Notes: generated by a model not told the origin, from the sequence alone. A DNA stretch of 64,000 bases from an uncultured Candidatus Saccharibacteria bacterium (GCA_964613715.1 CAZTJK010000002.1:40355-104354); one strand, 5' to 3'. Counted from the stretch's first letter, positions 7,214 to 47,923 are shown. Program-made: numbers and translations.

Positions 7214-7250
7214 AAGCCCCGCGGCATAGCACGCGGGGCTTTTTTATTTC
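7214..7250 (+). terminator. Rho-independent terminator
   Basis: aagccccgcg-gcatagca-cgcggggctt hairpin followed by TTTTTTATTT. Confidence 0.85.
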
Positions 7251-7276: not shown

Positions 7277-7813
7277 ATGTTCTCCGACCCGCAGCGCACT
7301 ATCGATCAATTCAATATCGGCAAAGGCACAGTTGTCGCCGATTTCGGCGCGGGATCGGGCTTTTATGCGCTCGCAGCGGCAGAGGCTGTGGGCGAGACTG
7401 GTAAGGTGTATGCCGTCGATGTGCAGAAGGACCTCTTGCAGAAGCTCAAGAGCGAGGCGAAGAATGTCCGCCATCTCAATAATGTCGAGATCATCTGGGC
7501 CGACCTCGATCATCTCGGCGGCACGCGGCTGCGCGAAGCATCCATGGATGCCGTCATTGCCGCGAATCTTTTCTTCCAGCTGCCGAACAAGGACAATACC
7601 TGCATGGAAATCCGCCGCATATTGAAGAAAAACGGCCGCGTACTCATCGTCGACTGGTCCGCATCGTTCGGCGGCATGGGCCCGCAGGCAAAAGAGGTAT
7701 TTTCTGAAGATGCTGCCAAGAAGCTCTTTGCCAAGCATGGCTTCACGCTCGACAAGGAGATCATCATGTCGGGCGCCCAGCATTACGGCCTCGTATTCAG
7801 GAAAACGGTCTGA
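7277..7813 (+). CDS. Class I SAM-dependent methyltransferase
   Basis: 178 aa; motif I VVADFGAGSGFYAL, motif post-I VYAVDV, consistent with Rossmann-fold methyltransferases; -10-like tatact just upstream of ATG. Confidence 0.75.
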   Translation: MFSDPQRTIDQFNIGKGTVVADFGAGSGFYALAAAEAVGETGKVYAVDVQKDLLQKLKSEAKNVRHLNNVEIIWADLDHLGGTRLREASMDAVIAANLFFQLPNKDNTCMEIRRILKKNGRVLIVDWSASFGGMGPQAKEVFSEDAAKKLFAKHGFTLDKEIIMSGAQHYGLVFRKTV

Positions 7814-7839: not shown

Positions 7840-9141
7840 ATGGAACCGAACAAGAACAAATTCAAATTGGTGCTGACGGGCATATTCGGCTTCTTCATCA
7901 TTCTCGGCCTCGTGGCATTTTCCACCTATCGCTCAAATTCGATCGCGAACAACGAGACGCCGATTGCGGTCTGGGGCACGCTCGACAAGGATACATTCGA
8001 TAATTTCGTCGCCAAATACAAGCAGGACAAGACCATTGATTTTAAGCTGACCTATATTCAAAAAGATATTTCCGTGATCGATGGCGATCTCGTGGAAGCC
8101 ATCGCGACCGGCAAAGCACCGGATGCGATACTCATTCCGCAGGAGCTCATGAAGCGCTATCTCGACAAAGTGTCACTCATCACGTCCATCCCGGAGCGCA
8201 CGTTCAAGGATACCTATGTGCAGGAAGCGGAAATGTATATACAGCCGGACGGCATGTTCGCCCTGCCGTTTTTCGTCGATCCGCTTGTGATGTATTGGAA
8301 CCGCGATATTTTCACGACAGCGGGCATCGCCACGCCACCAAAGCTCTGGTCGGAGTTTCCGCTCCTTGCCGGCAAGCTTTTCCAGTCTGATGATTCCGGC
8401 ACTGTCACGCAAACGCTCGCATCGCTTGGCGAATACTCGAATGTGACGAATGCCAAGGCACTCATTTCCGCACTCATTCTCCAGGCGGGCAGTCCGATTG
8501 TGAATACCGATGATGCCGGCGCGCTGAAATCTGCTCTCTATGACCGCGTGGAGGGAGTGCCAGTGATGCCTGCAGTATCGGCACTGTCATTCTTTACCGA
8601 TTATGCGAATCCGAAAAAGTCCGTCTATTCCTGGAATCGGGCGCTTCCGGCTTCGCAGAAATTCTTCCTATCCGGGAATCTTGCCACCTACTTTGGCTTT
8701 GCAAGCGAAGCAGCAAGCTTGCATGCGAAGAATCCGAACCTGAATTTCGATATCGCCGAAATGCCGCAGACAGTCGGCGCAAAAGTGCGAACGACTTTCG
8801 GCGAGCTCTATGGTTTTGCATTTTTGAAGAGCTCGCCGAACCTGGTGCCGGCATTCAACCTCCTTTCCACCCTTGCAAGCCCAGACGGGGTGAACGAGCT
8901 CATGCAATTTGCCGATGTCGCGCCGGCCCGCCGCGATATGCTTGCCGCAGGCACGACAGATCCTGAAAAGGCGGTCTTTTTCAGCTCAGCCCTTATTGCC
9001 AAAGGTTGGCTCGATGTGAGCGCGAAAGACACATCGCAGATTTTCCAGGAAATGGTCGAGAATATCACGACCGGCCGTATGACGGCGGATGATGCCGTGC
9101 AGAAGGCAAGCACGGAGCTTGATATTTTGCTACAATCATAG
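7840..9141 (+). CDS. Membrane-anchored extracellular solute-binding-protein-like protein (SBP family 1 fold)
   Basis: 433 aa; N-terminal TM anchor, then IAVWGT..., GKAPDAILIPQE, FALPFFVDPLVMYWNRDIF..AGIATPPKLWSEF resembling family-1 sugar SBPs; stop codon 2 nt before the first pilin-like gene suggests co-transcription with the pilin-like array. Confidence 0.55.
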   Translation: MEPNKNKFKLVLTGIFGFFIILGLVAFSTYRSNSIANNETPIAVWGTLDKDTFDNFVAKYKQDKTIDFKLTYIQKDISVIDGDLVEAIATGKAPDAILIPQELMKRYLDKVSLITSIPERTFKDTYVQEAEMYIQPDGMFALPFFVDPLVMYWNRDIFTTAGIATPPKLWSEFPLLAGKLFQSDDSGTVTQTLASLGEYSNVTNAKALISALILQAGSPIVNTDDAGALKSALYDRVEGVPVMPAVSALSFFTDYANPKKSVYSWNRALPASQKFFLSGNLATYFGFASEAASLHAKNPNLNFDIAEMPQTVGAKVRTTFGELYGFAFLKSSPNLVPAFNLLSTLASPDGVNELMQFADVAPARRDMLAAGTTDPEKAVFFSSALIAKGWLDVSAKDTSQIFQEMVENITTGRMTADDAVQKASTELDILLQS

Positions 9142-9143
9142 CT

Positions 9144-9521
9144 ATGACAAACCGTCGTATTATCGCTTCGCTTTCCGCAGCTGCCATCCTTGCGCCGCTC
9201 GCTGTTTTGGCAGCGGATCTCATCCCATGCGATGGGGTGAATACGCCATGCAATTTCGGCTCGCTTGCCACGCTCGTGAACAATATCATAAACTGGTTCC
9301 TCGGCATTTCAGTATCCGTTGCGGCAATTACCTGTGCGGTTGCCGGCGCAAAGATTCTTTTTAATCCTGGCAATCAGAGCGAGATCGAGGCGGGGAAGAC
9401 CATGCTCTGGAAGACCATCCAAGGCATGTTCATCATCCTGCTTGCATGGCTCGTGGTGCATACCGTCATTGCGGCGCTTGTAAATCCGTCGACCGGTGCG
9501 CTCCGATTCCTCGGCAATTAA
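9144..9521 (+). CDS. Pilin-like small membrane protein, paralog 1 (TrbC/VirB2-like architecture: signal peptide, TM1, charged loop, TM2)
   Basis: 125 aa; signal peptide with AxA site (AVLA|AD), two long hydrophobic helices separated by NPGNQSEIEAGK; same architecture as the four following ORFs. Confidence 0.6.
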   Translation: MTNRRIIASLSAAAILAPLAVLAADLIPCDGVNTPCNFGSLATLVNNIINWFLGISVSVAAITCAVAGAKILFNPGNQSEIEAGKTMLWKTIQGMFIILLAWLVVHTVIAALVNPSTGALRFLGN

Positions 9522-9538
9522 TCATTTATCATAATCCT

Positions 9539-9889
9539 ATGAAATTCATCACCCGTTTCTATACAGCAGTGCTTTCAGTACTTTCATTTTCAGTGCCAGC
9601 TCTTTCATTTGCCCAATCAAGCGTGATTCAGAATCCACTCAAGGGCGTTTCAAGCATCCCTGCATTCATTGCGACTGTGCTCGGCTATGTCGTGAAGATC
9701 GGCGGCATCATTGCCATCTTCGCGTTCATCTATGCCGGCTTCAAGTTCGTGGCTGCTCGCGGCAATCCGAAAGAGCTCGAAGATGCCAAGAGGATTTTTA
9801 TCAATACCTGCATTGGCGTTGCTGTGCTTCTCGGTGCCCAAGTGATCGCGACTATCATTGTCGGCACGATCAAGAATATCCAGCAATAA
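9539..9889 (+). CDS. Pilin-like small membrane protein, paralog 2
   Basis: 116 aa from ATG at 9539 (ORF 9446..9889 has an implausible N-extension overlapping paralog 1); signal peptide ALSFA|QSS; TM1, loop ARGNPKELEDAKR, TM2. Confidence 0.65.
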   Translation: MKFITRFYTAVLSVLSFSVPALSFAQSSVIQNPLKGVSSIPAFIATVLGYVVKIGGIIAIFAFIYAGFKFVAARGNPKELEDAKRIFINTCIGVAVLLGAQVIATIIVGTIKNIQQ

Positions 9890-9892
9890 TCC

Positions 9893-10300
9893 ATGAAGAG
9901 ATTTTTTGCCATCATTGCATCATTCCTCGTCTCATTTTCGGCGATTGGCATCGCTTATGCTGCGACAAATAGTGTTGCGGCGGCTGCTTTGGCCGGCTGC
10001 GTTCCGGGAAGGATCGGCAATTTCCATGACCTCGTATTCAATCTCTTCATCGGCTGTATCCTGTCGCCAGCCGTGTATCTGATCATCGGCATCGCAGTCG
10101 TTGTATTCCTCTACGGCATCGTCAAATTCATCATGTCTGACGGCGAAGGCCGCGAGGAAGGGAAGCAATTCATGTTTTACGGCATCGTGGGGCTTTTCAT
10201 TATCGTGTCCTTGTGGGCGTTCGTGCGTATTCTCCAGAGCACGTTCAACTTGAACTCGACCGATCTCAATATCCGGCCGACGACCGCTATCGGCCAATAG
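9893..10300 (+). CDS. Pilin-like small membrane protein, paralog 3
   Basis: 135 aa; signal peptide GIAYA|AT; TM1, loop SDGEGREEGKQ, TM2 YGIVGLFIIVSLWAFVRILQ closely matching paralogs 4 and 5. Confidence 0.7.
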   Translation: MKRFFAIIASFLVSFSAIGIAYAATNSVAAAALAGCVPGRIGNFHDLVFNLFIGCILSPAVYLIIGIAVVVFLYGIVKFIMSDGEGREEGKQFMFYGIVGLFIIVSLWAFVRILQSTFNLNSTDLNIRPTTAIGQ

Positions 10301-10336
10301 GTGTCGATAACCCCCTTGTGCGGCTGCCAAGGGCGC

Positions 10337-10344
10337 TGTATAAT
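10337..10344 (+). promoter_or_regulatory. Extended -10 promoter element (TGTATAAT) upstream of pilin-like paralog 4
   Basis: tgtataat in the 98-nt AT-rich gap between paralogs 3 and 4. Confidence 0.35.
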
Positions 10345-10398
10345 AATAGTCATAGAAAACGGTACGTTTATTAGATTATTTTAGACAAATATTTATTT

Positions 10399-10755
10399 AT
10401 GATGAAAAGAATACTGGCAGCCGCAGCAGCATCGACCCTTCCGCTTGTCGCCCTTGCGCAAGGATATGCCCCGAATCAGGGTGTCATGGGCCTCTTTAAT
10501 TTTGCTGGCGCAATCCTCAATAGAATCGTTCCGCTCCTTATCTCCATTGCCATCGTCTATTTCATCTGGCAGGTCTTCAAATACACCATTGCAGCCGATG
10601 AAGAAGCAAAGGGCGCGGCAAAGACCCATATCATTTACGGCATCGTCGGCATCTTTATCATGGTGTCCATCTGGGGCCTCGTAGCGATTCTCCAGGCGAC
10701 CTTCGGCACTTCGGGCGTCACCGGCACGATCGGCAATCAGATTCCGCAGATATAA
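10399..10755 (+). CDS. Pilin-like small membrane protein, paralog 4
   Basis: 118 aa; signal peptide ALA|QGYAP; TM1, loop ADEEAKGAAKTH, TM2 IIYGIVGIFIMVSIWGLVAILQATFG. Confidence 0.7.
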   Translation: MMKRILAAAAASTLPLVALAQGYAPNQGVMGLFNFAGAILNRIVPLLISIAIVYFIWQVFKYTIAADEEAKGAAKTHIIYGIVGIFIMVSIWGLVAILQATFGTSGVTGTIGNQIPQI

Positions 10756-10763
10756 GCGCGCCC

Positions 10764-11066
10764 ATGACTGCTCTCGTCGAGCGTGCATATGCACAGGATG
10801 TAGCCGCTGTCGGCAGCGGTGCTACCGGCTTCAACCGCCTTCTCCAAAACATCATCAATCAAATCGGCGTACCGATCATCTATCTTCTTTTGGCGCTTGC
10901 GGTCGTCTATTTTATGTGGGGCGTCGTCCTCTTCATCAAGAATGGCGATAATCCTGAGAAGCGCGAAGAGGGTTTCCAGCATATTATCTGGGGTATCATC
11001 GGCATCTTCATCATGGTGTCGGCAAAGGGGATCATCAATATCATTCTCGCGACGATCGGAGCTTAG
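10764..11066 (+). CDS. Pilin-like small membrane protein, paralog 5
   Basis: 100 aa; signal peptide AYA|QD; TM1, loop NGDNPEKREEGFQH, TM2 IIWGIIGIFIMVSAKGIINIILATIG. Confidence 0.7.
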   Translation: MTALVERAYAQDVAAVGSGATGFNRLLQNIINQIGVPIIYLLLALAVVYFMWGVVLFIKNGDNPEKREEGFQHIIWGIIGIFIMVSAKGIINIILATIGA

Positions 11067-11134: not shown

Positions 11135-11470
11135 CCTTTTTATTAGGTAGCTGCTCGGGCGAAAGCCCGGGAGGAAAGTCCGAACATTCCCATGGGCGAC
11201 CATGGAGCAGGGTAGCGGGTAACGCCCGTCCGGAGCGATCCGAGAGGTGCGAACAGTGACGTCTGCGGCGAAAGCCAAAGACATCCTTCGGGATGAATCT
11301 CGTCGAAAGGCGAGGGTGCAACGGCAAAATCCTTACTTGAATGCAAGGCCGTGCCTGCCGCAAGGCAGGAGCGCCGCTCGAGCCCGCGGGTAACCGCCGG
11401 CCCAGATAGATGGCTATCGTGTCCGGGCGACCGGGCATACAGAATTCGGCTTACAGGTATAAAGGTTATG
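11135..11470 (+). ncRNA. rnpB: RNase P RNA (bacterial type A)
   Basis: Contains universally conserved P4 strands: GGGAGGAAAGTCCGAAC near 5' end and ACAGAATTCGGCTTAC near 3' end, plus AGGGTAGCGGGTAACGCCCG and GAGGGTGCAACGGC...AGGAGCGCC regions; the ORFs 11091..11438(-) and the N-terminal extension of 11351..13228(+) overlap this RNA and are not coding. Boundaries approximate (about +/-15 nt). Confidence 0.85.
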
Positions 11471-11471
11471 G

Positions 11472-11505
11472 AAAGGGTCCGCGATGAGCGGGCCCTTTTC
11501 TTTTT
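11472..11505 (+). terminator. Rho-independent terminator after rnpB
   Basis: gggtccgc-gatga-gcgggccc hairpin followed by TTTTCTTTTT. Confidence 0.7.
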
Positions 11506-11551
11506 ACAACCTTCGGGAATGCGCTATACTACAGACTGCATTTCCGAGCGT

Positions 11552-14752: not shown

Positions 14753-14784
14753 GAGCTGCTCGTCTCACGCGAGCAGCTTTTTCG
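14753..14784. terminator. Bidirectional terminator between convergent genes
   Basis: gctgctcg-tctcac-cgagcagc hairpin with T-run after; miaA stop codon lies in the loop. Confidence 0.75.
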
Positions 14785-15655
14785 TTCTCCTGTATATGCG
14801 AGAGAATTGTTGTGGCTTAGACCACTGGATCTTCCTATTTTTCTTGAACCAGGTACGCTGGCGCTTTACATAGTGCCAGATTTCTTTTTTCAGGCTTTCC
14901 AGCATCTCGCTGTGCGAGATTTTTTTCTGTAGCAATAGCGCGATTTGACGGTATTCGAGCCCGAATGATTCGAGCCGTTTCCAGGAAACACCACCAGCAT
15001 GAAGCTTTCGCACTTCCTCAATCATACCAAGCTGCAAGCGTTTCTTGAGCCGTGTGGCAATCCTTTCTTTCAATGCCGCATCGGGCATATCGAGACCGAT
15101 ATAGGCAACTTCGTATTTTTCCGGTAATGCTTTTATTTCCGGCACATGGCCGAGCGTTTTCGCTATCTCGATTGCGCGGATGAGGCGGACTTTATTATGC
15201 TCGTCTATCGTTATTGCACGCTTTGGTGCATGCTTTCGGAGCATTGCAAAAAGTTCTGATGCCGATTTTGTTTCAAGATGTTTGCGCAGTTTCATATCGG
15301 GCTTTACGTCCGGCAATGAAATATTTTTTACGAGGCTATCTATATAAAATCCGGTACCGCCGACGATGATTGGCAGTTTTACTTTTGCAATGATTTTCTC
15401 GATCGCTTGTTCCCCGAGCTTTTTATATTGAGCGACTGAAAATCGAGTATTCGGGGAAACAACATCGAGCAGATGATGGGGAATGCCATGCATTTCATGT
15501 TTCGTGATCTTGCCCGAGCCGAGATTCATTCCTCGGTATACTTGGCGCGAATCGGCGGAAACGATTTCGCCATTGAATTTCTTGGCAAGCTGTACCGCGA
15601 TATCGCTTTTGCCGGTAGCCGTCGGACCGAGAATAACGAGAATATGAGGTTTCAT
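14765..15655 (-). CDS. miaA: tRNA dimethylallyltransferase
   Basis: MKPHILVILGPTATGKSDIAVQLAKKFNGEIVSADSRQVY...: P-loop GPTATGKS and ADSxQVY motif of MiaA; start trimmed to ATG 15655 because the longer ORF (to 15745) would overlap tRNA-Leu. Confidence 0.9.
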   Translation of the reverse strand: MKPHILVILGPTATGKSDIAVQLAKKFNGEIVSADSRQVYRGMNLGSGKITKHEMHGIPHHLLDVVSPNTRFSVAQYKKLGEQAIEKIIAKVKLPIIVGGTGFYIDSLVKNISLPDVKPDMKLRKHLETKSASELFAMLRKHAPKRAITIDEHNKVRLIRAIEIAKTLGHVPEIKALPEKYEVAYIGLDMPDAALKERIATRLKKRLQLGMIEEVRKLHAGGVSWKRLESFGLEYRQIALLLQKKISHSEMLESLKKEIWHYVKRQRTWFKKNRKIQWSKPQQFSRIYRRTKKLLA

Positions 15656-15660
15656 GTATG

Positions 15661-15743
15661 TGCCCGGGGAGAGACTCGAACTCTCATGACCTTGCGATCG
15701 CAGCATTTTGAGTGCTGTGCGTCTACCATTCCGCCACCCGGGC
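15661..15743 (-). tRNA. tRNA-Leu (anticodon CAA), class II with long variable arm
   Basis: rc sequence GCCCGGGTGGCGGAATGGTAGACGCACAGCACTCAAAATGCTGCGATCGCAAGGTCATGAGAGTTCGAGTCTCTCCCCGGGCA folds with acceptor GCCCGGG/CCCGGGC, anticodon loop CTCAAAA, 15-nt variable arm, T-arm GAGAG-TTCGAGT-CTCTC. Confidence 0.85.
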
Positions 15744-15821
15744 ATTTCTTCGCCATCATAGCAGTTTGGAACAAAAAATCAATTTTGCTGCCCGATTGTG
15801 GCATGATACAATCCAAACGCA

Positions 15822-27788: not shown

Positions 27789-28802
27789 ATGTCTTTTTTT
27801 ACTCGCAAACTCGGCATCGATCTCGGTACGGCGAATACTCTTGTCTTTCTGCCGAATAAGGGCGTAGTCCTTTTTGAGCCATCGGTGGTTGCCATCGCCG
27901 AGCAGGACAATAAGATTCTCGCAGTAGGACTTGAAGCGAAATCCATGATCGGCCGCACGCCGGATTCAATCATCGCGTATCGCCCGATGAAGGACGGCGT
28001 CATCGCGGACTATCGCGTGACGGAAGCGATGCTGCGCTATTTCATCGACAAGGCACTCGGCAAGTGGAATATCTTCAAGCCAGAGGTCATGGTTTCGGTG
28101 CCGGCTGGTATCACGTCGACGGAGCGCCGTGCAGTCGTTGAAGCAGCTATTCGCGCCGGTGCCAAGAATGCATATGTCGTGAAAGAGCCGATCCTTGCAG
28201 CGATCGGCGCGGGCATTCCTATTTATGAGCCGATGGGGCATATGATCGTGGATATTGGTGGTGGCACGACGGACGTTGCGGTTATATCGCTTGGTGGCAT
28301 CGTGGCATCGACATCAGTGAAATGCGCGGGCAATAAGATCGATGCGGCGATTGCTGACTATATCAAGAAAACATTCAATCTTGCGATCGGCGACAAGACA
28401 GCCGAGGATATCAAGATCAATATCGGTTCTGCCGTGCCGGTTGAGGACGAGCTTGCCATGATGATCAAGGGCCGTGATTTCCTCACAGGGCTTCCGCGCT
28501 CGACCGAAATCAAGACGAATGAAATTGTCAAAGCCATTTCAAAAGAATTGAAAGACATGATCAAGGCGATCAAGGATGTCTTGCAGGATACGCCGCCCGA
28601 GCTTGCCGCGGATATTATTGATAATGGTATCATCATGACCGGCGGCTCTTCGCAGCTGCGCAATCTGACCGAGCTTGTCTTCCGCCGTACGGGCGTCAAA
28701 GCGCAGGTTGCCAAGGACCCGCTCTATTGTGTGGCGAAGGGGACTGGTACTGCCCTTGAGCATCTTGATACCTACAAGAAGTCGATCATTGCAAAGCGAT
28801 AA
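27789..28802 (+). CDS. mreB: Rod shape-determining protein MreB paralog (Mbl-like second copy)
   Basis: 337 aa; actin-fold phosphate-1 (GIDLGTANTLV), DIGGGTTDVAVIS, GIIMTGGSSQLRNL. Confidence 0.85.
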   Translation: MSFFTRKLGIDLGTANTLVFLPNKGVVLFEPSVVAIAEQDNKILAVGLEAKSMIGRTPDSIIAYRPMKDGVIADYRVTEAMLRYFIDKALGKWNIFKPEVMVSVPAGITSTERRAVVEAAIRAGAKNAYVVKEPILAAIGAGIPIYEPMGHMIVDIGGGTTDVAVISLGGIVASTSVKCAGNKIDAAIADYIKKTFNLAIGDKTAEDIKINIGSAVPVEDELAMMIKGRDFLTGLPRSTEIKTNEIVKAISKELKDMIKAIKDVLQDTPPELAADIIDNGIIMTGGSSQLRNLTELVFRRTGVKAQVAKDPLYCVAKGTGTALEHLDTYKKSIIAKR

Positions 28803-33424: not shown

Positions 33425-34486
33425 ATGTTCGAAAGTCTCAAGAAAAAAATCCAGAAATATTTTTCAAACGATATCGGCATCGATCTCGGTACGGCCAATA
33501 CGCTGGTTTACCTTGCTGGCAAAGGCATCGTCATCAATGAGCCATCAGTGGTCGCGCTCAATCAAAAGACCGACCGCGTGGTCGCAGTCGGCGTGCAAGC
33601 GAAGGAAATGCTCGGCCGCACCCCGCCGCATATCGTTGCAGTCCGGCCGCTTGTCGACGGCGTTATTTCTGATTTCGAAGTGACGGAAGAAATGATCGCA
33701 TATCTCGTGAAAAAGGCTGAAGAGCTTTTGCCGAAAGTCATCGGGCCACGCGTGGTGGTCGGCGTGCCATCCGGCGTTACGAACGTGGAAATACGCGCTG
33801 TGCGTGATGCGACGCGAAATGCCGGCGCGCGCGAAGTGCATATCGTCGAGGAGCCAATGGCAGGTGCCATCGGCATTCGTCTGCCGATTCATGATCCGGT
33901 CGGCTCGATGGTAATCGATATCGGCGGGGGAACAACGGATATCGCCGTCATATCGCTTGGTGGCATCGTGCGTTCGAAGAATCTCAAGATCGCGGGCGAC
34001 AAGCTCAACAACGACATCGTGAGCTATATCCGCGGTGAGTTCAAGATACTCATCGGCGAAAAAACGGCCGAACAGATCAAAATGTCGATCGGTGCAGTCG
34101 TTTCCGGCGGGCATCTCGAATCGTCCATCAAAGGCCGCGACCTCATCACTGGCCTGCCACGCGAAGTAATACTCACAGATTCGGATGTCCGCGAAGCGAT
34201 GTCCCAATCGATCGAATCACTTGTCGATGCCACGAAAGAAGTGCTCGAGACCACGCCACCCGAGATTCTTGCCGATATCATGCAGCGTGGTATCTATCTT
34301 TTTGGCGGCGGCGCGCTCATCAAGGGCTTGGACGCGCTCTTGCACGAATATCTGAAAATTCCGGTGCGTATTGCTGATGACCCGCTTACGGCGGTTGCGC
34401 GCGGCACCGGCATCATCCTCGAGAATCTCGACACGTATCGCGACGTATTAATCCAGAACGAAGATGCCTTACCGCCAAAGAAATAA
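33425..34486 (+). CDS. mreB: Rod shape-determining protein MreB
   Basis: 353 aa; GIDLGTANTLVY, DIGGGTTDIAVIS, GIYLFGGGALIKGLD; followed by mreC-mreD-PBP2 as in canonical mre operons. Confidence 0.9.
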   Translation: MFESLKKKIQKYFSNDIGIDLGTANTLVYLAGKGIVINEPSVVALNQKTDRVVAVGVQAKEMLGRTPPHIVAVRPLVDGVISDFEVTEEMIAYLVKKAEELLPKVIGPRVVVGVPSGVTNVEIRAVRDATRNAGAREVHIVEEPMAGAIGIRLPIHDPVGSMVIDIGGGTTDIAVISLGGIVRSKNLKIAGDKLNNDIVSYIRGEFKILIGEKTAEQIKMSIGAVVSGGHLESSIKGRDLITGLPREVILTDSDVREAMSQSIESLVDATKEVLETTPPEILADIMQRGIYLFGGGALIKGLDALLHEYLKIPVRIADDPLTAVARGTGIILENLDTYRDVLIQNEDALPPKK

Positions 34487-35264
34487 TGAATTCGAGCGCG
34501 TCAATCGCCGGCTGAAGCTCATGCCGCTTGCTCTTGCTGCGCTCATCCTTCTCATCGTCCTGTTTTCTTTCTCCGGTCCGCGATCATTTCTATTTGCAGT
34601 TGCGAGACCTTTTTGGGGCGTGCGTGATAGTATCGCATCATTTTTCGATGAAGCCATCAGTCTTGTGGTATCGAAGTCATCGCTCATTGCTGAAAATGTA
34701 GCACTGAAAAAGCAGGTAAGCGATATGGCTCGCCAGCAGGCCCTCTACCTGATTACTCAAGAGGAGAATGCTGATCTGAAAGCGCTGTTTGGCAGAAAAA
34801 GCACGGAACGGCCAGTGCTTGCCCGCGTGCTGGTCAAGCCGACCTTTTCACCCTTTGACACCCTTTTGATTGATCTGGGCAGCGCCGACGGCATTGCCAT
34901 CGGCAATATCGTGCGCGCGGCGAGCTCTACCTCTATCGGCTTCGTATCAGAAGTATATGATCATACCGCAAAAGTAACGCTCTATTCGTCAGACGGGCAA
35001 AAGACGAAAGTCGAAGTGGGGAAGGCAGCAACACTCAAGGAAGCGACCGGTCTCGGCGGCGGGAATTTTTCCCTACAAATGCCGGTTGGCTCGGGCGTTC
35101 ATGTGGGCGATGCGATTGTCATGCCGTCAGTGTCCCCGAATATATTCAGCACGGTGCAGAAAGTGGAATTCAAGCCGACAGACTCGTTCGAGCGGGTGCT
35201 GTTTCAGCTGCCGGTCAATGTAAGCGAACTTGTATTTGTCGAAGTGCTCTTGTCGCAAAAATAA
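34464..35264 (+). CDS. mreC: Rod shape-determining protein MreC
   Basis: 266 aa; N-terminal TM, coiled-coil (ENVALKKQVSDMARQQA), C-terminal beta-barrel region with VLVKPT...D.LLIDLGS.DGI..G..V; start may be an internal ATG (34521) rather than the overlapping 34464. Confidence 0.75.
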   Translation: MPYRQRNNEFERVNRRLKLMPLALAALILLIVLFSFSGPRSFLFAVARPFWGVRDSIASFFDEAISLVVSKSSLIAENVALKKQVSDMARQQALYLITQEENADLKALFGRKSTERPVLARVLVKPTFSPFDTLLIDLGSADGIAIGNIVRAASSTSIGFVSEVYDHTAKVTLYSSDGQKTKVEVGKAATLKEATGLGGGNFSLQMPVGSGVHVGDAIVMPSVSPNIFSTVQKVEFKPTDSFERVLFQLPVNVSELVFVEVLLSQK

Positions 35265-35266: not shown

Positions 35267-35536
35267 ATGGTTCGGCGCATCTGTTTCAATATACTTTGTT
35301 TTCTATCGGTCCTGCTGCTGCCGGTGTTGGTGGCCGTCGCGGTGCTTGTCCTGGCTATTTTTCTCTGTGACGCGTTTGTCGAAGCGGTCGGCTGGGCATT
35401 CCTTATTGATACCTTGTACAGCGATGGCACAGTATTCGGCATCACATTCCATTATCCAGTTACCGCCTGCATGCTGCTTGTCCTGTGTGCTTCGCTCTTT
35501 ATCAAGCGGATGATGACCTGGTATCCGCGCCCATAA
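35267..35536 (+). CDS. mreD: Rod shape-determining protein MreD (putative)
   Basis: 89 aa hydrophobic protein directly after mreC and before PBP2; assignment by position and hydrophobicity only. Confidence 0.45.
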   Translation: MVRRICFNILCFLSVLLLPVLVAVAVLVLAIFLCDAFVEAVGWAFLIDTLYSDGTVFGITFHYPVTACMLLVLCASLFIKRMMTWYPRP

Positions 35537-35547
35537 ATGAGCTTCCC

Positions 35548-37260
35548 ATGTCCAAGAAGATCAAAACACTGTTTGGCAATACAATAGATACGAAACGGAT
35601 CAAAGATATCGAGCCGGACGAGATTTTCCTTGATTCCGAAAATCTGCCGAAATTCGACGTGAACCAGTTCGAAGGACGCATCGAGAAATCAATTTCTACG
35701 GGCACATTCCTCGTATTCGGTATTGTATGCGCTCTTATTTTTGGTATATTCTTTGCGCGCTCCATTATTCTGCAAGGCGTTCGCGGTGCAGCCTATCTTG
35801 CCAAAAGTGAAAGCAATCGCCTGCGTTATACGGTGCTCTTTCCCGAGCGAGGGATCATCACGGACAGAAATGACGAAAAGCTTGCCTGGAATAGTGCAAG
35901 TGATACGAACAGTGAATTTTCATTCCGTACGTACAAAGATACTCCCGGCCTGTCGCATGCCGTGGGCTATGTGCAGTATCCATCGAAGGACGCTTCAGGG
36001 TTTTATTACAATGAGGATTTTCTTGGCGAAGACGGAGTCGAGAAATATTATAATGATGTATTGTCAGGTACGAACGGCCAGCAGATTATCGAGATCGATG
36101 CTGCAGGGAAACTTTCCTCTGAAAGCGTTGTCCGTCCTCCGGAAGACGGCACGAATCTCAAGCTGTCCATCGATGCCGGCTTGACCTCATTTCTGTATCA
36201 GACGATCCGCTCGCTTGCGCAGCAAGTCGGCTTTACAGGTGGCGGCGGGGTGATCATGGATGTGCATACCGGGGAAGTAATCGCACTGACGAGCTTTCCG
36301 GAATACGATTCGCAAGTCATGACCGATCGCGCAAATAAGAAAATCATCAATCAGTATCTTACCGATTCCAATAATCCGTTTCTCGATCGCATCATCGACG
36401 GCCTCTATACGCCAGGCTCCATCGTGAAGCCCTATATGGCATTCGCAGCGCTTACTGAAAAAATCATCGATCCGCTCACTACTATTTTGAGTACTGGTTC
36501 AATTTCGATTCCAAATCCCTATGATCCTGCGCATCCATCGGTCTTCCGCGACTGGCGACCGCAGGGTTATGTGGATGTTCGCCATGCGCTTGCCGTTTCT
36601 TCCGACGTGTATTTCTATGAAGTCGGCGGCGGATACCAGAATCAGAAAGGGCTCGGCATCAATCTTATCGATACATACATGAACATGTTCGGCTTCGGCA
36701 ATAGTCTGCCCGACGGATTTTTCAAAGGAAGCATCGGCGTGATCCCGACGCCCGATTGGAAGAAAGCGAATTTCAATGGTGAGGAGTGGAATATCGGAGA
36801 CACGTATCATACCTCGATCGGTCAATACGGCTTTCAGGTGACGCCGATGCAGGTGGTGCGAGCGGTTGCCGCAATTGCAAATGGCGGGACACTTGTGAAC
36901 CCATCGATACTCTTTGGCGGCGATGCGCATGGCACGGTCAAGCTCGACCTCGATCAGAATAATCTCCAGATCGTCCGCGAAGGCATGTCTTTGTCGGCCT
37001 CCGCCGGAGGGGTTGCGAGCGGCTTGGATGTCGGCTATGTCAAAGTCGGTGCAAAGACCGGCACCGCCGAGCTCGGCTCAAAGAAGCAATTCGTCAATTC
37101 CTGGGTTACCGGCTTTTTCCCGTATGATCATCCGAAATACGCCTTCGCCGTAATCATGGAAAAGGGGCCGGTGACCAATACTGTCGGCGGCGTTTATGTC
37201 ATGCGTCAGGTGCTTGATTGGCTCCATGCCACGAAGCCTGACTATCTCTCCAGTAACTGA
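35548..37260 (+). CDS. mrdA: Penicillin-binding protein 2 (elongasome transpeptidase)
   Basis: About 570 aa from ATG 35548; N-terminal TM, dimerisation domain, transpeptidase motifs SIVKP (SxxK), SSD (SxN) and KTGTA; follows mreBCD. Confidence 0.85.
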   Translation: MSKKIKTLFGNTIDTKRIKDIEPDEIFLDSENLPKFDVNQFEGRIEKSISTGTFLVFGIVCALIFGIFFARSIILQGVRGAAYLAKSESNRLRYTVLFPERGIITDRNDEKLAWNSASDTNSEFSFRTYKDTPGLSHAVGYVQYPSKDASGFYYNEDFLGEDGVEKYYNDVLSGTNGQQIIEIDAAGKLSSESVVRPPEDGTNLKLSIDAGLTSFLYQTIRSLAQQVGFTGGGGVIMDVHTGEVIALTSFPEYDSQVMTDRANKKIINQYLTDSNNPFLDRIIDGLYTPGSIVKPYMAFAALTEKIIDPLTTILSTGSISIPNPYDPAHPSVFRDWRPQGYVDVRHALAVSSDVYFYEVGGGYQNQKGLGINLIDTYMNMFGFGNSLPDGFFKGSIGVIPTPDWKKANFNGEEWNIGDTYHTSIGQYGFQVTPMQVVRAVAAIANGGTLVNPSILFGGDAHGTVKLDLDQNNLQIVREGMSLSASAGGVASGLDVGYVKVGAKTGTAELGSKKQFVNSWVTGFFPYDHPKYAFAVIMEKGPVTNTVGGVYVMRQVLDWLHATKPDYLSSN

Positions 37261-40786: not shown

Positions 40787-41112
40787 CACACTACATGAAA
40801 AACAGCATAGAATCATTCGAGCTCAGAGAGCAAAAGCTTTTCTGGGTTCTTTCCGGCATGCTGCTGTTCCTCATCATCGCCTATGGCGTGCTCGTCAATA
40901 AGACGATCGCAAACGCAGTATCGCTGCAGAATATGCAGAAGCGCATGACGGCGCTCAATGCCGCCGTGAATTCGCTCGAGTTCACCTATTTGAATATGGA
41001 AAATGGCATCACGCTCGACACTGCGCATGCCAAAGGCTTCGAAAATGTTACAGAAGACAACTTTGCACTGATCGATTCCGGCCGCTCCTCACTCTCGCTC
41101 AATGCACGCTAG
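40783..41112 (+). CDS. ftsL: Cell division protein FtsL-like (small bitopic protein)
   Basis: 109 aa, single TM, coiled-coil; ATGA overlap with rsmH stop and position between rsmH and ftsI. Confidence 0.55.
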   Translation: MTHYMKNSIESFELREQKLFWVLSGMLLFLIIAYGVLVNKTIANAVSLQNMQKRMTALNAAVNSLEFTYLNMENGITLDTAHAKGFENVTEDNFALIDSGRSSLSLNAR

Positions 41113-42844
41113 CGTCTTTCAGGGCAGGGTGCGGCTTCTCTTCGGACTGCTTGTCCTGGTCGCGCTTGTCATGATCATCCGCCTCTATTTCCTGCAGGTC
41201 GTCTACACGAATGTCTATGCCGAGCGAGCGGATCGCCAGTATACCAGCATGTCGGTTGACGCTTTCGATCGCGGAAGCATTTTTTTCGAGGATAGGGACG
41301 GGTCACTCGTATCGGCTGCCGGCATCAAGACCGGCTATGTAATAGCGCTCAATATGCGTTCGGTGGCTACCGATACTGAGCGCTATTTTAGCGAGCTTTC
41401 AAGCATTCTGCCTATTTCCGCGGCAGATTTCTATGCCATTGCAGCAAAGAAGGATGATCCATACGAAGTCATCGCCAAGCATGTCGATGATGCGGCCGTG
41501 GCAAAAGTAAGCGCCTTGTCGCTTCCCGGCGTCATCATTGAAAAAGAGAAGTGGCGCTATTATCCGGGCGACTCGCTCGCTGCTCGCATCATCGGCTTTG
41601 TCGGCTTCGATGATAGCGGCACAAGCTTGACTGGCAGATACGGATTGGAAAAATATTATAATACCGTGCTATCGCGCGATTCGAGCGCCCTGTCAGTAAA
41701 TATCTTTGCCCAGCTTTTTTCGGATATTCAGACGAATTTTATCGATGACAGCAAGAAGGAGGGGGATATCGTGACCTTGATCGATCCCCAAGTCGAAAGC
41801 TATGTCGAGCAAGTGGTCAAGCAGGCCAATGCTAAATGGAGCTCGAAACTGACCGGTGCGATCGTCATCGATCCGAAGACCGGAGCGCTTTATGCAATGG
41901 GCGTGATGCCGGCATTCAACCTCAATGATTTCAGCGGTGAGAAAGATGTCAGCATTTTCGGCGACCCGCTCGTCTCGAATGCATATGAAATGGGATCAAT
42001 CGTAAAGCCGCTGACCATGGCTGCGGGTCTGGATGCCGGCGTCGTACGTGCCGACACGACCTACCATGATACCGGGTTTGAGACGCTTGATGGCAAGACG
42101 ATACACAACTATGACAATAAGGCGCGCGGCACGGTCGACATGCAAACGGTACTGAACCAATCGCTCAATATCGGCGCAGCATTCGTGGCTGACCGGCTGG
42201 GCAAAAGCACAATGCTCCAGTATTTTAAAGGGTACGGCATCGGATCGGAGACGGGCATTGATCTGCCCGATGAGGCTGCGGGGAATATTTCCAATCTCCT
42301 GACGAATGAGACGAATGACAAGAAAATCGAATATGCGACCGCCTCGTTTGGCCAGGGCATTTCCATGACACCGATCATCACTGCGCGAGCGCTCTCGGTG
42401 CTTGCCAATGGCGGTAAACGCATCATTCCGCATGTCGCATCGGAAATAGACTACAAGACGGGCCTGACGAAGAAAGTCGACTATGTGGACGAGGCAGTGC
42501 AGGTGCTCCAGCCGAAGACATCGGAGGAAATCACCCGCATGCTCGTGAAGGTCGTAGACACCTCGCTTGCGAACGGGACAATGAAAATGCAGCATTACAG
42601 TATCGCGGCGAAAACCGGCACGGCGCAGATTGCCCGGCCGGCGAACCAAGGCGGTGGCTACTATCCGGACAGATACCTGCATTCATTTTTCGGCTATTTT
42701 CCGGCATATAATCCGCGCTTCCTGGTATTTCTCTATACCGTCGAGCCGCAAGGAGTCAACTATGCCTCGCAGACGCTCACCGAGCCGTTTTTCGACATAG
42801 CGAAATTCCTGATTAATTATTATGAGATAGCGCCGGACCGATAG
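41102..42844 (+). CDS. ftsI: Penicillin-binding protein FtsI-like (divisome transpeptidase)
   Basis: 580 aa; N-terminal TM, transpeptidase motifs GSIVKP (SxxK), SLN (SxN), KTGTAQ (KTG); dcw position after ftsL. Confidence 0.85.
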   Translation: MHASVFQGRVRLLFGLLVLVALVMIIRLYFLQVVYTNVYAERADRQYTSMSVDAFDRGSIFFEDRDGSLVSAAGIKTGYVIALNMRSVATDTERYFSELSSILPISAADFYAIAAKKDDPYEVIAKHVDDAAVAKVSALSLPGVIIEKEKWRYYPGDSLAARIIGFVGFDDSGTSLTGRYGLEKYYNTVLSRDSSALSVNIFAQLFSDIQTNFIDDSKKEGDIVTLIDPQVESYVEQVVKQANAKWSSKLTGAIVIDPKTGALYAMGVMPAFNLNDFSGEKDVSIFGDPLVSNAYEMGSIVKPLTMAAGLDAGVVRADTTYHDTGFETLDGKTIHNYDNKARGTVDMQTVLNQSLNIGAAFVADRLGKSTMLQYFKGYGIGSETGIDLPDEAAGNISNLLTNETNDKKIEYATASFGQGISMTPIITARALSVLANGGKRIIPHVASEIDYKTGLTKKVDYVDEAVQVLQPKTSEEITRMLVKVVDTSLANGTMKMQHYSIAAKTGTAQIARPANQGGGYYPDRYLHSFFGYFPAYNPRFLVFLYTVEPQGVNYASQTLTEPFFDIAKFLINYYEIAPDR

Positions 42845-44266: not shown

Positions 44267-44327
44267 ACGGTCATAGCCAAGAGTTCTTCTACATTCTTTT
44301 GTATGGAGAATTGCTGGCTATGACCGT
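44267..44327 (+). promoter_or_regulatory. Large leader hairpin: 13-bp perfect inverted repeat (acggtcatagcca ... tggctatgaccgt) with 35-nt loop in the 5' UTR of the lipoprotein gene
   Basis: Arms at 44267-44279 and 44315-44327; preceded by a small hairpin + T-run at 44233-44252 and followed by RBS aaaaaggag at 44352. Confidence 0.4.
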
Positions 44328-44366
44328 TACCGGTCCTAGACTACTATTTGAAAAAGGAGCCTTACA

Positions 44367-44951
44367 ATGAAGCAAGGAAAGCCTGGCTTATGGATAGGCA
44401 GTATCGCATGCCTGCTGTTCGTATTCCTGTCTGGATGCGGACAGACAAAGATGGCAAGCATCCATAGGAAAATTTCAACTATGGAGGTTTGTCCAAGCAC
44501 CAACCAGCATTATGCCATCAACTTGCACAATGCTGGGATAGCATCTGGCACTGATCTCGTGGTAAGTGCGCCGAGCAATAGCGATCTCGGATTCCAATGG
44601 ATCTTCGACCAAGACTTGCCGATAAATCTTGGCCAAACGGTCAATACTGCGATTTACAGTGCAAAGGGGCAAATGGAGGGACCTTCGATGAATAATCCTT
44701 CCGTCCTTTTCATGAATTCAGGGAATCCGGGGACCTTTACCAAGGCTATCGTTACCCGGAACAGCCTTGATCAGGCAGGCAATTATCTGTGGGCTGTAAA
44801 GCTCGAAGCTAATTCCGGTGGTACAAATGTGTACTCCATTTCGTACAGTTCAGGAAATGGCTTCATCTATTTTCCGGAACATATCAGGAATTGCGAACCG
44901 TATTCGGAGGTGCACATCACCGGGGTTCTTAGTCGCTTCTTTATCCAGTAG
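44367..44951 (+). CDS. Putative lipoprotein (cargo gene 0 of islet)
   Basis: 194 aa; signal peptide with lipobox LSGC (Cys at position 24), strong RBS; no family recognised; G/S/N-rich mature domain. Confidence 0.6.
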   Translation: MKQGKPGLWIGSIACLLFVFLSGCGQTKMASIHRKISTMEVCPSTNQHYAINLHNAGIASGTDLVVSAPSNSDLGFQWIFDQDLPINLGQTVNTAIYSAKGQMEGPSMNNPSVLFMNSGNPGTFTKAIVTRNSLDQAGNYLWAVKLEANSGGTNVYSISYSSGNGFIYFPEHIRNCEPYSEVHITGVLSRFFIQ

Positions 44952-44985
44952 TGTTAACAGCTTACGCAAATGTGCTCAACATTGC

Positions 44986-45014
44986 ACCTCGTAGAAATAC
45001 GAGGTTTTTCTTTT
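44986..45014 (+). terminator. Rho-independent terminator after lipoprotein gene
   Basis: cctcgta-gaaa-tacgagg hairpin + TTTTTCTTTT. Confidence 0.75.
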
Positions 45015-45043
45015 GTGACCTCTGTTATCCAGAATTGGAACAC
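45015..45043. repeat. Repeat R1: tRNA-3'-end-like element (gtgacctctgttatccagaattggaacac)
   Basis: About 80% identical to R2 at 47103-47131; shares GTGACC with the tRNA-Glu acceptor end; contains conserved mini-hairpin tctg-ttatc-caga with compensatory changes relative to R2. Confidence 0.6.
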
Positions 45044-45186
45044 GATTTTTGAACATGTCAAAAACTTCTGGTCATTCCGACCCGATGAACAGGTAACCGA
45101 TACGGCATTCCTCGCCGCATGAATGAATTGTATGCAATACCGATTCATCCAAAAGAGGAAGAAAAATATCCATTTGGATAGGAAGA

Positions 45187-45429
45187 TCAGAACTGTCCTG
45201 TCCGCTTACTCCTGCTTTTCTTTCCGATTGATTTCATATGGTCCGGCAATGGCTCGGGGCTGGTATGGTCATACGCAATGCTCGGATTCTCAACCCCTTT
45301 ACTCTCCAGGAAGCACTGAAGGGCCAGCTGTGCTTGCTGGTAGAGGAGGTCACGGATCTCCCAGAGCTCGTCATCCGAGACATCCTTCAGTGCAGGATCG
45401 ACTTTTCTCAATTCTTCAAAGCTCAACAT
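45187..45429 (-). CDS. Hypothetical small protein A1 (divergent partner of XRE regulator, module 1)
   Basis: 80 aa; paralogous to 47217..47546(-) (MLSFEELRKVDPALKDVSDDELWEIRDLLYQQAQLALQCFLE vs MMTLKQLRELEPSLKDLPDHEVFRIRQLLYDHAMLALSCFLE). Confidence 0.55.
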   Translation of the reverse strand: MLSFEELRKVDPALKDVSDDELWEIRDLLYQQAQLALQCFLESKGVENPSIAYDHTSPEPLPDHMKSIGKKSRSKRTGQF

Positions 45430-45541
45430 GGTGTGTATTGGTTAGGTGGATAAAAGCACTCGTGTACGGTAGCACCTACAGGACGATTCAGGACCTATCC
45501 AAAAGGATGCTTTTCTCTAGCTTCTTCGTGCTACGTTCATT

Positions 45542-45760
45542 TTGTATCATCGCACTATGACTCTCAAAAACCATATTGGGCTCAATATCCGTCTCTATCG
45601 CCGGCTCAAAGGGCTGACGCAGGAGGAATTAGCCATCCAGGCAGGGATGCATGTGAATACAATCATTCAGCTTGAGGATCTAAGAAGGAAAGCGAATCCG
45701 AGGGTGGAGACGTTGGAGAGACTGGGGAGAGTGTTAAGGGTAAAGGTATGTTATATTTAA
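45542..45760 (+). CDS. XRE-family HTH transcriptional regulator (module 1)
   Basis: 72 aa; HTH LTQEELAIQAGMHVNTIIQLE; paralog of 47657..47896 including shared C-terminal ANPRVETLERLGRVL. Confidence 0.75.
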   Translation: MYHRTMTLKNHIGLNIRLYRRLKGLTQEELAIQAGMHVNTIIQLEDLRRKANPRVETLERLGRVLRVKVCYI

Positions 45761-45781
45761 GTTTTAAACTACAGTTATCAT

Positions 45782-46984
45782 ATGCTCGAAAAGTTGAAGA
45801 ATATTTCAAAGATCATATTCTTGGTTGCCACAGTCTTTTATATCTTCGGTTTTATAACCATTAGTTCTTTTTGGGGACGTTTTGGAATTATTACATTTGA
45901 TATCGTAAATGCCCGTTTTTTGATTGCGGGTTTTTTCTGCGTAGTTTCAATTATTGTTTGTCTTTTGTTAGCCTGGGTTGTTTATAAAAGAGCGCCATTT
46001 AAGGATTTTTTTAATACTGAAAAATGGCGTGACAGATTTTTAGGATTTTTTGGTATTTGGGGTCTTCTTTACAGTGCGGGAGCAGTACTAACTAGTCTTT
46101 TAAATCTTGGTAGCTATCAACCACCTGCAGTAGAGACTTCATTAAAATTTAGTAATGTGACCGGATTTGACTATATTGGTATTTTTATAAAAAACCACAT
46201 CAATCTTGGTAATGGTGGATATGACTACGTCATTAAGGTAACACTAGAAATGTTCAGTTATATTTTTTTAGTTTTTTTATTAATAACTGCCTGTGTAATT
46301 ATTCATGGTTGGTTTCCTAAGAAGGACAAAAAATCTCTGGTCAGTGTCGATCAAGCTAGTCCTGAAATAGTAACGGAAAAAGCTCAAGATATTTTGGTAA
46401 CAGATAAAAAACCGCTTAATAAATACCTCCTCTTGCTAATGGTTAATGTAGAAATACTTGCAATCTGCGGTTTTATTAGCCTCTATATATTTTGTATATC
46501 AAAAGTAGGTACTGCATTTATTGATTTTTCTACTATCCAAAATGAGCCAAAACTTACAGCAACACTCTATTTTTCCTGGTTGTATGTTCTAGTAATGACT
46601 ACTTATGTTTTTTTAAATATTTCTTTTAAAAATGATTCTTTTTCCAATTTCAATCTTTTTAAAAAGATTGAAAATATTACTAATTATGATGATTTAATCC
46701 GACAAATTATTATCCCCATATTCAGCGCTGCAGTTGTGTTTGGTTGGACAATTTATCCACGTATACCTTTTGCTTTCGGCGGAGGACAACCAAGGTTAAT
46801 TCAACTCCAGTTGACTACTCCTTTGAATGTTTCTTCAACTTCAAAAGTTTACCTTTTAGGGGAATCAAGCCAATTTGTTTTTGTCGCAATTGTTAATAAA
46901 ATCAATTCGGAAGCACTAGAAATAAATAAAAATCAAATTGAATATATACAAACAAAAACCTTATCTGTGACCAGCGCTAAATAA
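45782..46984 (+). CDS. Hypothetical polytopic membrane protein, strongly AT-rich (cargo gene 1)
   Basis: 400 aa, about 9-10 hydrophobic helices, F/I/L/N/K-rich; composition sharply different from host genes; 21 nt after the XRE gene, so probably co-transcribed. Confidence 0.6.
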   Translation: MLEKLKNISKIIFLVATVFYIFGFITISSFWGRFGIITFDIVNARFLIAGFFCVVSIIVCLLLAWVVYKRAPFKDFFNTEKWRDRFLGFFGIWGLLYSAGAVLTSLLNLGSYQPPAVETSLKFSNVTGFDYIGIFIKNHINLGNGGYDYVIKVTLEMFSYIFLVFLLITACVIIHGWFPKKDKKSLVSVDQASPEIVTEKAQDILVTDKKPLNKYLLLLMVNVEILAICGFISLYIFCISKVGTAFIDFSTIQNEPKLTATLYFSWLYVLVMTTYVFLNISFKNDSFSNFNLFKKIENITNYDDLIRQIIIPIFSAAVVFGWTIYPRIPFAFGGGQPRLIQLQLTTPLNVSSTSKVYLLGESSQFVFVAIVNKINSEALEINKNQIEYIQTKTLSVTSAK

Positions 46985-47131: not shown

Positions 47132-47216
47132 CATTATTCTGTACCTCAAGAATTTCAAGGAGGTAATGGGGCAAGAAGTGGTCGACGGAATGGATAGTAA
47201 TATTTTATTACCTGCA

Positions 47217-47546: not shown

Positions 47547-47656
47547 AGGTGTGGATAATTTAATAGCTTGTAATAGGGGAACTCTGCGGATATTTTCCGA
47601 GAACGGCACATTAGACCGTCTTACCTACAGAGCAGGGGGAACGTATAGTAAAAAAC

Positions 47657-47896: not shown

Positions 47897-47923
47897 TATT
47901 TCGATTTAGAATTAGTTAAATTT

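Follow-up and report, generated by a model that had tools for sequence, protein, structure and literature searches.

A MalE-fold binding protein gene linked to five T4SS_pilin family genes in a putative Paceibacteria operon, away from type IV secretion loci

Gene content and layout of the locus

The DNA analysed in this work (the window) is a stretch of 64,000 nucleotides (nt), or 64 kb, deposited as part of an uncultured Candidatus Saccharibacteria genome (GCA_964613715.1, CAZTJK010000002.1:40355-104354). We focus on a compact group of its plus strand genes coding for a class I S-adenosylmethionine-dependent methyltransferase (MTase), a membrane-anchored solute-binding protein of the MalE fold (SBP) and five small pilin-like membrane proteins designated P1 to P5. 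The plus strand between 7214 and 11500 is readable as a single unit. MTase (7277..7813, 178 amino acids, aa) matches the Pfam families Methyltransf_31/25/11 and Ubie_methyltran, and SBP (7840..9141, 433 aa) matches SBP_bac_8 with 53.1 bits. They are followed by P1 (9144..9521, 125 aa), P2 (9539..9889, 116 aa), P3 (9893..10300, 135 aa), P4 (10399..10755, 118 aa) and P5 (10764..11066, 100 aa), all on the plus strand.

A first-pass annotation, made by a model from the sequence alone, had placed SBP and the five pilin-like genes at 7840-11066. Open reading frames (ORFs) for all six were found at these positions, with P1 starting 2 nt past the SBP stop codon as had been stated. The mechanically called ORF of P2 is longer (9446-9889, 147 aa), but the real start is almost certainly the ATG at 9539, which yields the 116 aa product and was also chosen when an identical Logan contig was gene-called independently. 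P4 is preceded by a 98-nt gap.

On the upstream side, a consensus scan has located a terminator-like hairpin (7214..7241, plus strand) with a 10-pair stem, including 8 G-C pairs, and a T run after it. It closes the gyrA unit upstream, and the operon probably begins, on its 5' side, at this hairpin. On the downstream side, P5 is directly followed by the gene for bacterial class A RNase P RNA (RF00010, 11135-11469, plus strand, 114 bits). A strong terminator (11470-11500) lies between rnpB and murJ, and a promoter-like site (11503-11530) precedes murJ.

Family assignment and architecture of P1-P5

All five small proteins exceed the gathering threshold of PF18895 (T4SS_pilin, 26.6 bits), scoring 36.0, 37.3, 28.9, 33.8 and 59.3 bits for P1 to P5, respectively. 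Their likeness to the pilins of type IV secretion systems (T4SS) is therefore far above chance, and membership of PF18895, as judged by profile scores, is solid. The same family is annotated on the orthologues in related genomes. PF04956 (TrbC/VirB2, threshold 27.9 bits) is marginally exceeded by P2 (29.2 bits) and P5 (28.3 bits), while P1, P3 and P4 gave no match to it in the Pfam scan. For NF045849, a pilin-like conjugal transfer protein with a cut-off of 40, P5 is above the cut-off at 42.4 and P1-P4 match below it. The first-pass annotation had proposed a T4SS-pilin family and named holins and small multidrug exporters as assignments that would speak against it; the family call holds, and neither of these families appears among the Pfam or NCBIfam matches, even at E values up to 1.

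Leaders and topology were called from hydropathy and charge heuristics. Each protein has two long hydrophobic helices (mean Kyte-Doolittle hydropathy of 1.7-2.3) separated by a charged loop of 11-18 residues, in agreement with the initial description. The loops contain 2-4 Lys/Arg residues versus 0-1 in the N- and C-terminal tails, so that an N-out/C-out hairpin is predicted by the positive-inside rule.

A signal peptide with an AxA cleavage site had been ascribed to all five proteins. This is borne out for P1-P4 and fails for P5. The leaders of P1-P4 are classical, with a hydrophobic core between a charged n-region and the AxA site (LAA^D, SFA^Q, AYA^A and ALA^Q, respectively). The N-terminus of P5, MTALVERAYA^QD, lacks a hydrophobic core in its first 10 residues, and the best 10-residue hydropathy within its first 30 residues is 1.11 compared to 1.96-2.82 in P1-P4. 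As this short N-terminus (consensus MDFLIxKAYAA) is nearly invariant among 39 aligned orthologues, it is not a truncation artefact. A leader supplied through a frameshift or an upstream start was also considered and rejected, there being no start codon or hydrophobic stretch upstream in any joining frame. The AlphaFold model of P5 built from the 39-orthologue alignment is a helical hairpin (helices 20-59 and 64-98, pLDDT 80).

P3, P4 and P5 are mutually related, as the first reading of the sequence had suggested, with pairwise identities of 39-42% (42% for P3 versus P4). P1 and P2 are 21-27% identical to the other pilins of the array (E about 1e-5 in a six-sequence database).

Conservation of the gene block and positional orthology

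We scanned genomes, one per species, with the SBP alignment. At least 581 genomes encode SBP, and the best 80 loci were analysed, genes being assigned to positions along each locus with position-specific hidden Markov models; individual loci are referred to below by L numbers. Relatives of the window proteins go under the names Paceibacterota, Taylorbacteria, Wolfebacteria or Minisyncoccia.

A P1-type gene directly follows SBP in 77 of the 77 loci that have any downstream sequence, and the three loci without a P1 match stop at the SBP stop codon. The two genes lie 1-10 nt apart or overlap by 4 nt, and a spacing of only 1-4 nt or an overlap is frequent. SBP, which the first-pass annotation had treated as a mere neighbour, is the most conserved partner of the array. 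P1 is followed by P2, then by one to five P3/P4-type genes and then by a P5-type gene, which closes every complete array except three. Where over 4.5 kb of downstream sequence is available, 28 loci have the order 1-2-3-4-5 and the rest mostly carry extra P3/P4-type copies. Across about 80 species, P1, P2 and P5 keep a fixed order and are single-copy almost throughout, apart from occasional atypical arrays such as those of L057 and L072.

In 76 of the 77 loci that extend far enough upstream, MTase directly precedes SBP, and the two genes overlap by 4 nt in L005, L007, L008 and L097-L099. The reverse search, begun from P1 homologues, led back to the MTase-SBP-P1 block, in which MTase/SBP and SBP/P1 overlap by 4 nt. 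The 681,747-bp sequence OY970290.1, a complete or near-complete Paceibacteria genome, has the block at about 460 kb. The MTase-SBP-pilin block is kept despite differing flanks (L007/L028 and L081), and murJ is found downstream in only 16 of the 80 loci. Overall, the set is shared by at least 80 species, and probably by 581 or more.

To compare array positions, we took the five pilins of five relatives in which SBP has 45-64% identity to the window protein. In 146 of 150 comparisons the top cross-genome match came from the corresponding array position; all four exceptions concern the P3 position in the most distant genome. Pilin orthologues are 34-75% identical, versus 21-52% for the best paralogue within a genome. 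In the five other genomes, position-specific orthologues are 34-64% identical to P1, 43-63% to P2 and 36-45% to P3, while P4 is the most conserved member (47-69%). The first-pass annotation had implied duplications that phylogeny could date. The five pilins instead represent old, order-conserved orthologue groups, and a recent tandem duplication of P1-P5 was rejected on the strength of this positional orthology.

Several orthologues depart from the minimal hairpin. P1 and its orthologues have a Cys-x(3-20)-Cys-[DN]-Phe motif immediately before the first transmembrane helix, and a C-terminal GALRFLG motif is common to window P1 and that of close relatives; these may correspond to a disulphide loop and to a processing or interaction motif, respectively. 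P3 orthologues contain a variable N-terminal insert, Cys-rich or Gly-rich, which brings the protein up to 262 aa. Certain pilins of the arrays are extended at the N-terminus by large extracellular regions (L008 11286-12227, L007 12588-13376, L080 3348-4619 and L081 11282-13337). In L008 P1 bears a Kre9_KNH domain, on P3 the additions are the Gly-rich or Cys-rich inserts, and other pilins have C-terminal tails. This suggests that the pilin hairpins can serve as anchors or scaffolds displaying extra domains.

The anchored binding protein and its fusions with P1

The AlphaFold model of SBP (pLDDT 84.6) has an N-terminal transmembrane helix at residues 4-33. A Foldseek search of the Protein Data Bank (PDB) with this model matched maltose/maltodextrin binding proteins with E values of about 1e-22 and TM-scores up to 0.72. 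SBP therefore has the type II periplasmic-binding-protein fold with an N-terminal membrane anchor. It has more than 2,000 homologues, and the source records annotate the protein as binding sugar or glycerol-3-phosphate. Among sequences sharing 45-65% identity with window SBP, 53 positions are invariant. Genes for an ABC permease or ATPase (BPD_transp, ABC_tran) were not found in the window or adjoining SBP in the annotated relatives; a single ABC_tran ORF located about 10 kb off in L066 is unrelated.

In three loci SBP and P1 make up one in-frame ORF of 560-568 aa (L042 9998-11680, L064 3510-5216 and L066 9998-11683). These belong to species-level metagenome-assembled genomes from separate assemblies, and their linkers have diverged. 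In each fusion the linker stands in for the P1 leader, and mature P1 (LDYSGFVKCDGV...) continues unchanged. Topologically, the fusions would work only with the SBP domain and the mature N-terminus of P1 on the same, outer, side of the membrane, and they imply that SBP and P1 work together. They are the strongest sign that SBP belongs to the block. MTase is as conserved in its adjacency as SBP, but support from fusions or any other independent line exists for SBP only.

Comparison with known systems

Tandem pilin genes of this family are known from other members of the candidate phyla radiation (CPR), also called Patescibacteria. Ca. Southlakia epibionticum ML1 has six PF18895 pilins (SEML1_0014-0019), which are essential and located inside a T4SS cluster (Wang 2023, PMC10633639). 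A survey has described 441 Patescibacterial VirB2 arrays of 2-11 pilins each in 383 CPR assemblies, scored as being near virB4 and most abundant in Microgenomatia and Saccharimonadia (Quinonero-Coronel 2025, PMC12102498). T4SS pilins were among the most highly expressed genes of unknown function in Paceibacterales co-cultured with methanogens (PMC10936435), and the role of T4SS and pilins in Patescibacteria has been termed essential but "completely unknown" (PMC11665869).

The window array resembles those arrays in having tandem PF18895 genes of about 100-185 aa in a chromosomal location of a CPR host and no relaxase context (ML1; PMC12102498). Such arrays comprise at least two tandem divergent PF18895 genes, and there are five here. 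Paralogue divergence is also similar, with a reported mean identity of 25% and a maximum of 54% for Patescibacterial arrays and 21-42% in the window. However, the ML1 array is found amid VirB4, PrgI/VirB3, VirB6-like and lysozyme genes and without a binding protein, whereas the window array is locked to MTase and the MalE-fold protein. A placement within or near a virB4 cluster was found neither in the 64-kb window nor, judging by ORFs of at least 400 aa, in the 10 kb around the array in the 80 relatives.

P1-P5 share with VirB2 of A. tumefaciens and TrbC of RP4 (PF04956) the leader, the two hydrophobic helices and the short charged loop, except that P5 lacks a classical leader. Before assembly, VirB2 and TraA reside in the membrane with N-out/C-out topology. 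The sequence likeness between VirB2/TrbC and the window pilins is marginal. Besides, the latter differ in comprising five distinct subunits instead of one major pilin, in having no adjacent VirB3/VirB4 and in the monoderm nature of the host.

The pilin-like protein of Mycoplasma integrative conjugative elements (NF045849, Mbov_0395 family) is likewise a small VirB2-like hairpin of a monoderm or wall-less organism. It is encoded by a single gene in a mobile conjugative element, whereas the window contains a chromosomal operon of five such genes and a binding protein gene in a housekeeping context. Tandem amplified genes of the VirB2 family are also found in Bartonella and Anaplasma (cited in PMC12102498). 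Those arrays are read as variable or interchangeable, while the positions of the window array correspond to fixed orthologue groups across species.

In Sulfolobus, sugar-binding proteins are assembled at the cell surface into a "bindosome" by the pilin-like Bas system. Its proteins are type IV-pilin-like, with class III signal peptides, and it includes a PilB/PilC-type ATPase and platform. The genetic coupling of a solute-binding protein to small pilin-like membrane proteins resembles this arrangement, as an analogy only, and would suggest a surface assembly presenting a binding protein. Unlike the bindosome components, the window proteins are VirB2-type hairpins with Sec-type leaders (P1-P4), and there is no homology.

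The literature searched contains no account of an MTase-SBP-five-pilin operon extending across Paceibacteria, of the positional orthology of its genes, of its distance from virB4 or of SBP-P1 fusions. These features look new, although arrays of this kind have themselves been published.

Proposed model and alternatives

We favour the reading in which MTase, the anchored MalE-fold protein and five non-redundant PF18895 pilins constitute one operon, a Paceibacteria form of the VirB2-like array, and its products form a VirB2-type assembly of five non-redundant subunits to which the binding protein is tethered. A T4SS with its genes in another place would build this assembly, which would serve host or ligand recognition at the surface. 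We put the probability of this joint reading at roughly 0.55. P1-P4 would be exported by Sec and cleaved at their AxA sites, and P5 would be inserted without a classical leader. All five would form N-out/C-out hairpins in the cytoplasmic membrane, the charged loop facing the cytoplasm, as the charge bias and the SBP-P1 fusions suggest. By their family they would be VirB2-like proteins able to polymerise into a pilus, and homology to VirB2/TrbC suggests extraction from the membrane followed by assembly into a short envelope-spanning or surface structure. A machine of the VirB4/TrsD/VirB3/VirB6 type, with its genes at another chromosomal site, would drive the assembly. Since each pilin forms a separate, order-conserved orthologue group, the five most likely hold distinct structural positions (such as base, shaft and tip or adaptor) and would not be interchangeable variants. 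SBP would physically join P1 and provide recognition of a ligand or host surface. In favour of this model are the family scores and two-helix architecture of the pilins, their positional orthology and conserved order, the persistence of the block amid changing flanks, the SBP-P1 fusions, the extracellular domains on some pilins and the published record of essential or highly expressed pilins in Patescibacteria. Polymerisation, reliance on a T4SS, the ligand, any part played by MTase and the surface appendage or adhesion role suggested in the first-pass annotation are inferred.

A number of observations weigh against this model. As the first-pass annotation had pointed out for VirB4 and VirD4, the secretion ATPases are not nearby: VirB4, VirD4, VirB6, VirB3 and TrsD are all missing from the window, where all ORFs of at least 500 aa, and nearly all of at least 150 aa, are housekeeping or unassigned. 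In the 80 relatives, no T4SS gene (VirB4-like or other) was detected among ORFs of at least 400 aa within 10 kb of the array. For this, ORFs of that size without a window homologue were clustered, and a Pfam scan was made of ten representatives, selected by a Walker A motif, cluster size or a position just downstream of an array. It returned ABC_tran, a Schlafen-type helicase, Band_7, a sub-threshold lysozyme-like SLT_3 match or no assignment. Mating-pair-formation genes (VirB3, VirB4, VirB6 and others) were likewise absent from the annotated contexts of the relatives. In the available part of Table S3 of PMC12102498, Paceibacteria T4SS loci contain a single PF18895 gene of their own, two genes from virB4, so the machine may not need the array. 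PF18895 matches in that part of the table occur solely with VirB4 proximity given as "Yes", and the remote Paceibacteria block was thus probably not catalogued there. The one related genome that could be matched to the supplements of that study, L079 (GCA_001821295.1), speaks for the model in being scored VirB4-positive in Table S1, yet it has no VirB4-like ORF within 10 kb of its array; two other related assemblies, GCA_028709755 and GCA_028870935, are absent from the supplements.

Further points against the model come from comparisons of structure and from the genetics of the locus. A profile of the P5 family found no meaningful match among PDB sequences, and Foldseek with the P5 model retrieved only generic hairpins from the PDB, for example from ion channels, ATP synthase c and complex I subunits, with E values no better than 0.88; such matches are uninformative on family. 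Alignment of the P5 family with seven plasmid VirB2/TrbC sequences by hhalign was full-length and co-linear over 67 columns, with an E value of 0.0029 but a probability of only 10.7%. SBP-P1 fusions are rare: they are confined to one small clade, and none occurs among the 120 best matches of the P1 profile, all of which are 122-209 aa long. No pilus has been seen. Finally, gyrA is kept upstream in 64 of the 80 loci. Synteny is generally sticky in this clade, so adjacency alone overstates functional linkage, above all for MTase, which might nevertheless have a part in the system.

The most serious competitor, possible but distinctly less probable than the assembly built by a T4SS, is a T4SS-independent membrane complex. 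In it the anchored SBP and one copy of each of the five hairpins, i.e., about 10 transmembrane helices plus the anchor, would form a fixed hetero-oligomer acting as an SBP-dependent uptake or host-tapping channel or as a bindosome-like scaffold keeping SBP in the envelope, with neither filament nor VirB4. The fixed composition, conserved order and separate orthologue groups suit such a complex, and translational coupling together with the SBP-P1 fusion points to a defined stoichiometry. The lack of T4SS genes within 10 kb in 80 genomes and the separate pilin beside virB4 in the tabulated Paceibacteria loci also fit, as does an SBP of the ABC-importer type with no permease or ATPase nearby. On the other hand, the block has no energising component or known channel family, and the characterised relatives of the family are pilins or T4SS components. 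A P3/P4-type gene count varying from 1 to 5 suits a polymer or a variable shaft more than a rigid channel, and the extracellular N-terminal domains on some pilins suggest surface display. A related idea, which we consider doubtful, is that the locus encodes a T4SS-derived but SBP-dependent device and not a pilus accessory: a MalE-fold receptor tethered, or in some species fused, to a five-hairpin envelope conduit, capturing or docking onto a host-derived sugar or glycan for uptake by organisms unable to make their own building blocks. If this were true, Patescibacterial T4SS pilins would be tied to nutrient acquisition and not to export.

It is unlikely, and somewhat more so than such a device, that SBP and MTase are merely syntenic, SBP serving an ordinary ABC importer with its permease encoded elsewhere and the pilins forming an independent T4SS array. 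The retention of the functionally unrelated gyrA shows that slow rearrangement may preserve neighbours, and SBP is a normal-looking SBP_bac_8/SBP_bac_1 member annotated as binding sugar or glycerol-3-phosphate. However, the invariable SBP-P1 succession, the 1-10 nt spacing or 4-nt overlap, the persistence of the block through flank changes, the absence of permease and ATPase genes from the window and the in-frame fusions kept in three species with diverged linkers all argue for a closer connection. Another suggestion, made for CPR arrays in PMC12102498, is that the pilins are interchangeable variants serving antigenic or host-range variation. The divergence of paralogues within the array (21-42% identity), the varying number of P3/P4-type genes and the variable P3 inserts are consistent with it, but positional orthology argues against it, at least for P1, P2 and P5: orthologues across species are closer than paralogues within a genome (146 of 150), and these three genes are nearly always single-copy in a fixed order. 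As this pattern is the opposite of lineage-specific diversification, variation is largely refuted for P1, P2 and P5, and we regard it as very improbable overall. Practically nothing favours a cluster of unrelated small membrane proteins (holins, small multidrug exporters or chance hydrophobic ORFs) except that two-helix hairpins are very common and fold searches return only generic ones; it is refuted by the PF18895 scores of all five proteins together with the lack of holin or exporter matches, by positional orthology, by the constant place of the array after SBP and by conservation of the genes in hundreds of genomes.

Whichever apparatus the operon encodes, five fixed orthologue groups argue for a multi-subunit structure with distinct roles over antigenic variants. 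Through the obligatory MalE-fold partner, which in some species is fused to P1, the substrate or host receptor becomes accessible to experiment, and the distance of the array from virB4 permits a clean phyletic test of whether these pilins need T4SS. Should they prove VirB4-independent, much of the family would bear a misleading name in T4SS_pilin.

Other features of the array flanks and of the window

Just downstream of the array, L034 and three similar loci have a 548-aa ORF (L034 6278-7924, minus strand) with an SLT_3 (PF18896) score of 26.4 bits versus the cut-off of 27. Its product may be a VirB1-like wall hydrolase, going by this sub-threshold match. In several relatives, L005 (13382-15111), L007 (14363-16104) and L008 (14093-15858), the array is immediately followed by a minus-strand gene pair, not found in the window. 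One gene codes for a Band_7/SPFH protein (about 380-410 aa), the other for a product without Pfam matches (about 170-200 aa).

The window as a whole is chromosomal housekeeping DNA, including gyrA, parB, relA, topA, dprA, priA, aminoacyl-tRNA synthetase genes, mreB/C, penicillin-binding protein genes, murJ and the gene for XFP phosphoketolase. Two mechanically called ORFs overlap RNA genes. As the 625-aa MurJ ORF (GTG at 11351) overlaps RNase P RNA, murJ really begins further on; the gene call on an identical contig is 586 aa long. The MiaA (IPPT) ORF (14765-15745, minus strand) overlaps tRNA-Leu(CAA) (15660-15743, minus strand), and as its Pfam match begins at residue 35, the real start lies downstream of the tRNA gene.

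Although the CPR genome is reduced, the window codes for two MreB paralogues, MreC and two class B penicillin-binding proteins (27789-28802, 33425-34486, 34464-35264, 35485-37260 and 41102-42844). A 442-aa ORF (55137-56465, plus strand) located between the genes for a sigma-70-region-4/HARE-HTH protein and YceG has no Pfam or PHROG match. A stretch at about 44300-49500 has a GC content of 0.36-0.44 versus about 0.50 elsewhere and adjoins tRNA-Glu (48721-48795, minus strand). Neither Pfam nor PHROG matches were obtained for the ORFs within it, at 44367-44951 (lipoprotein-like), 45782-46984 (polytopic membrane protein) and 47924-48625, and the stretch may be an acquired island.

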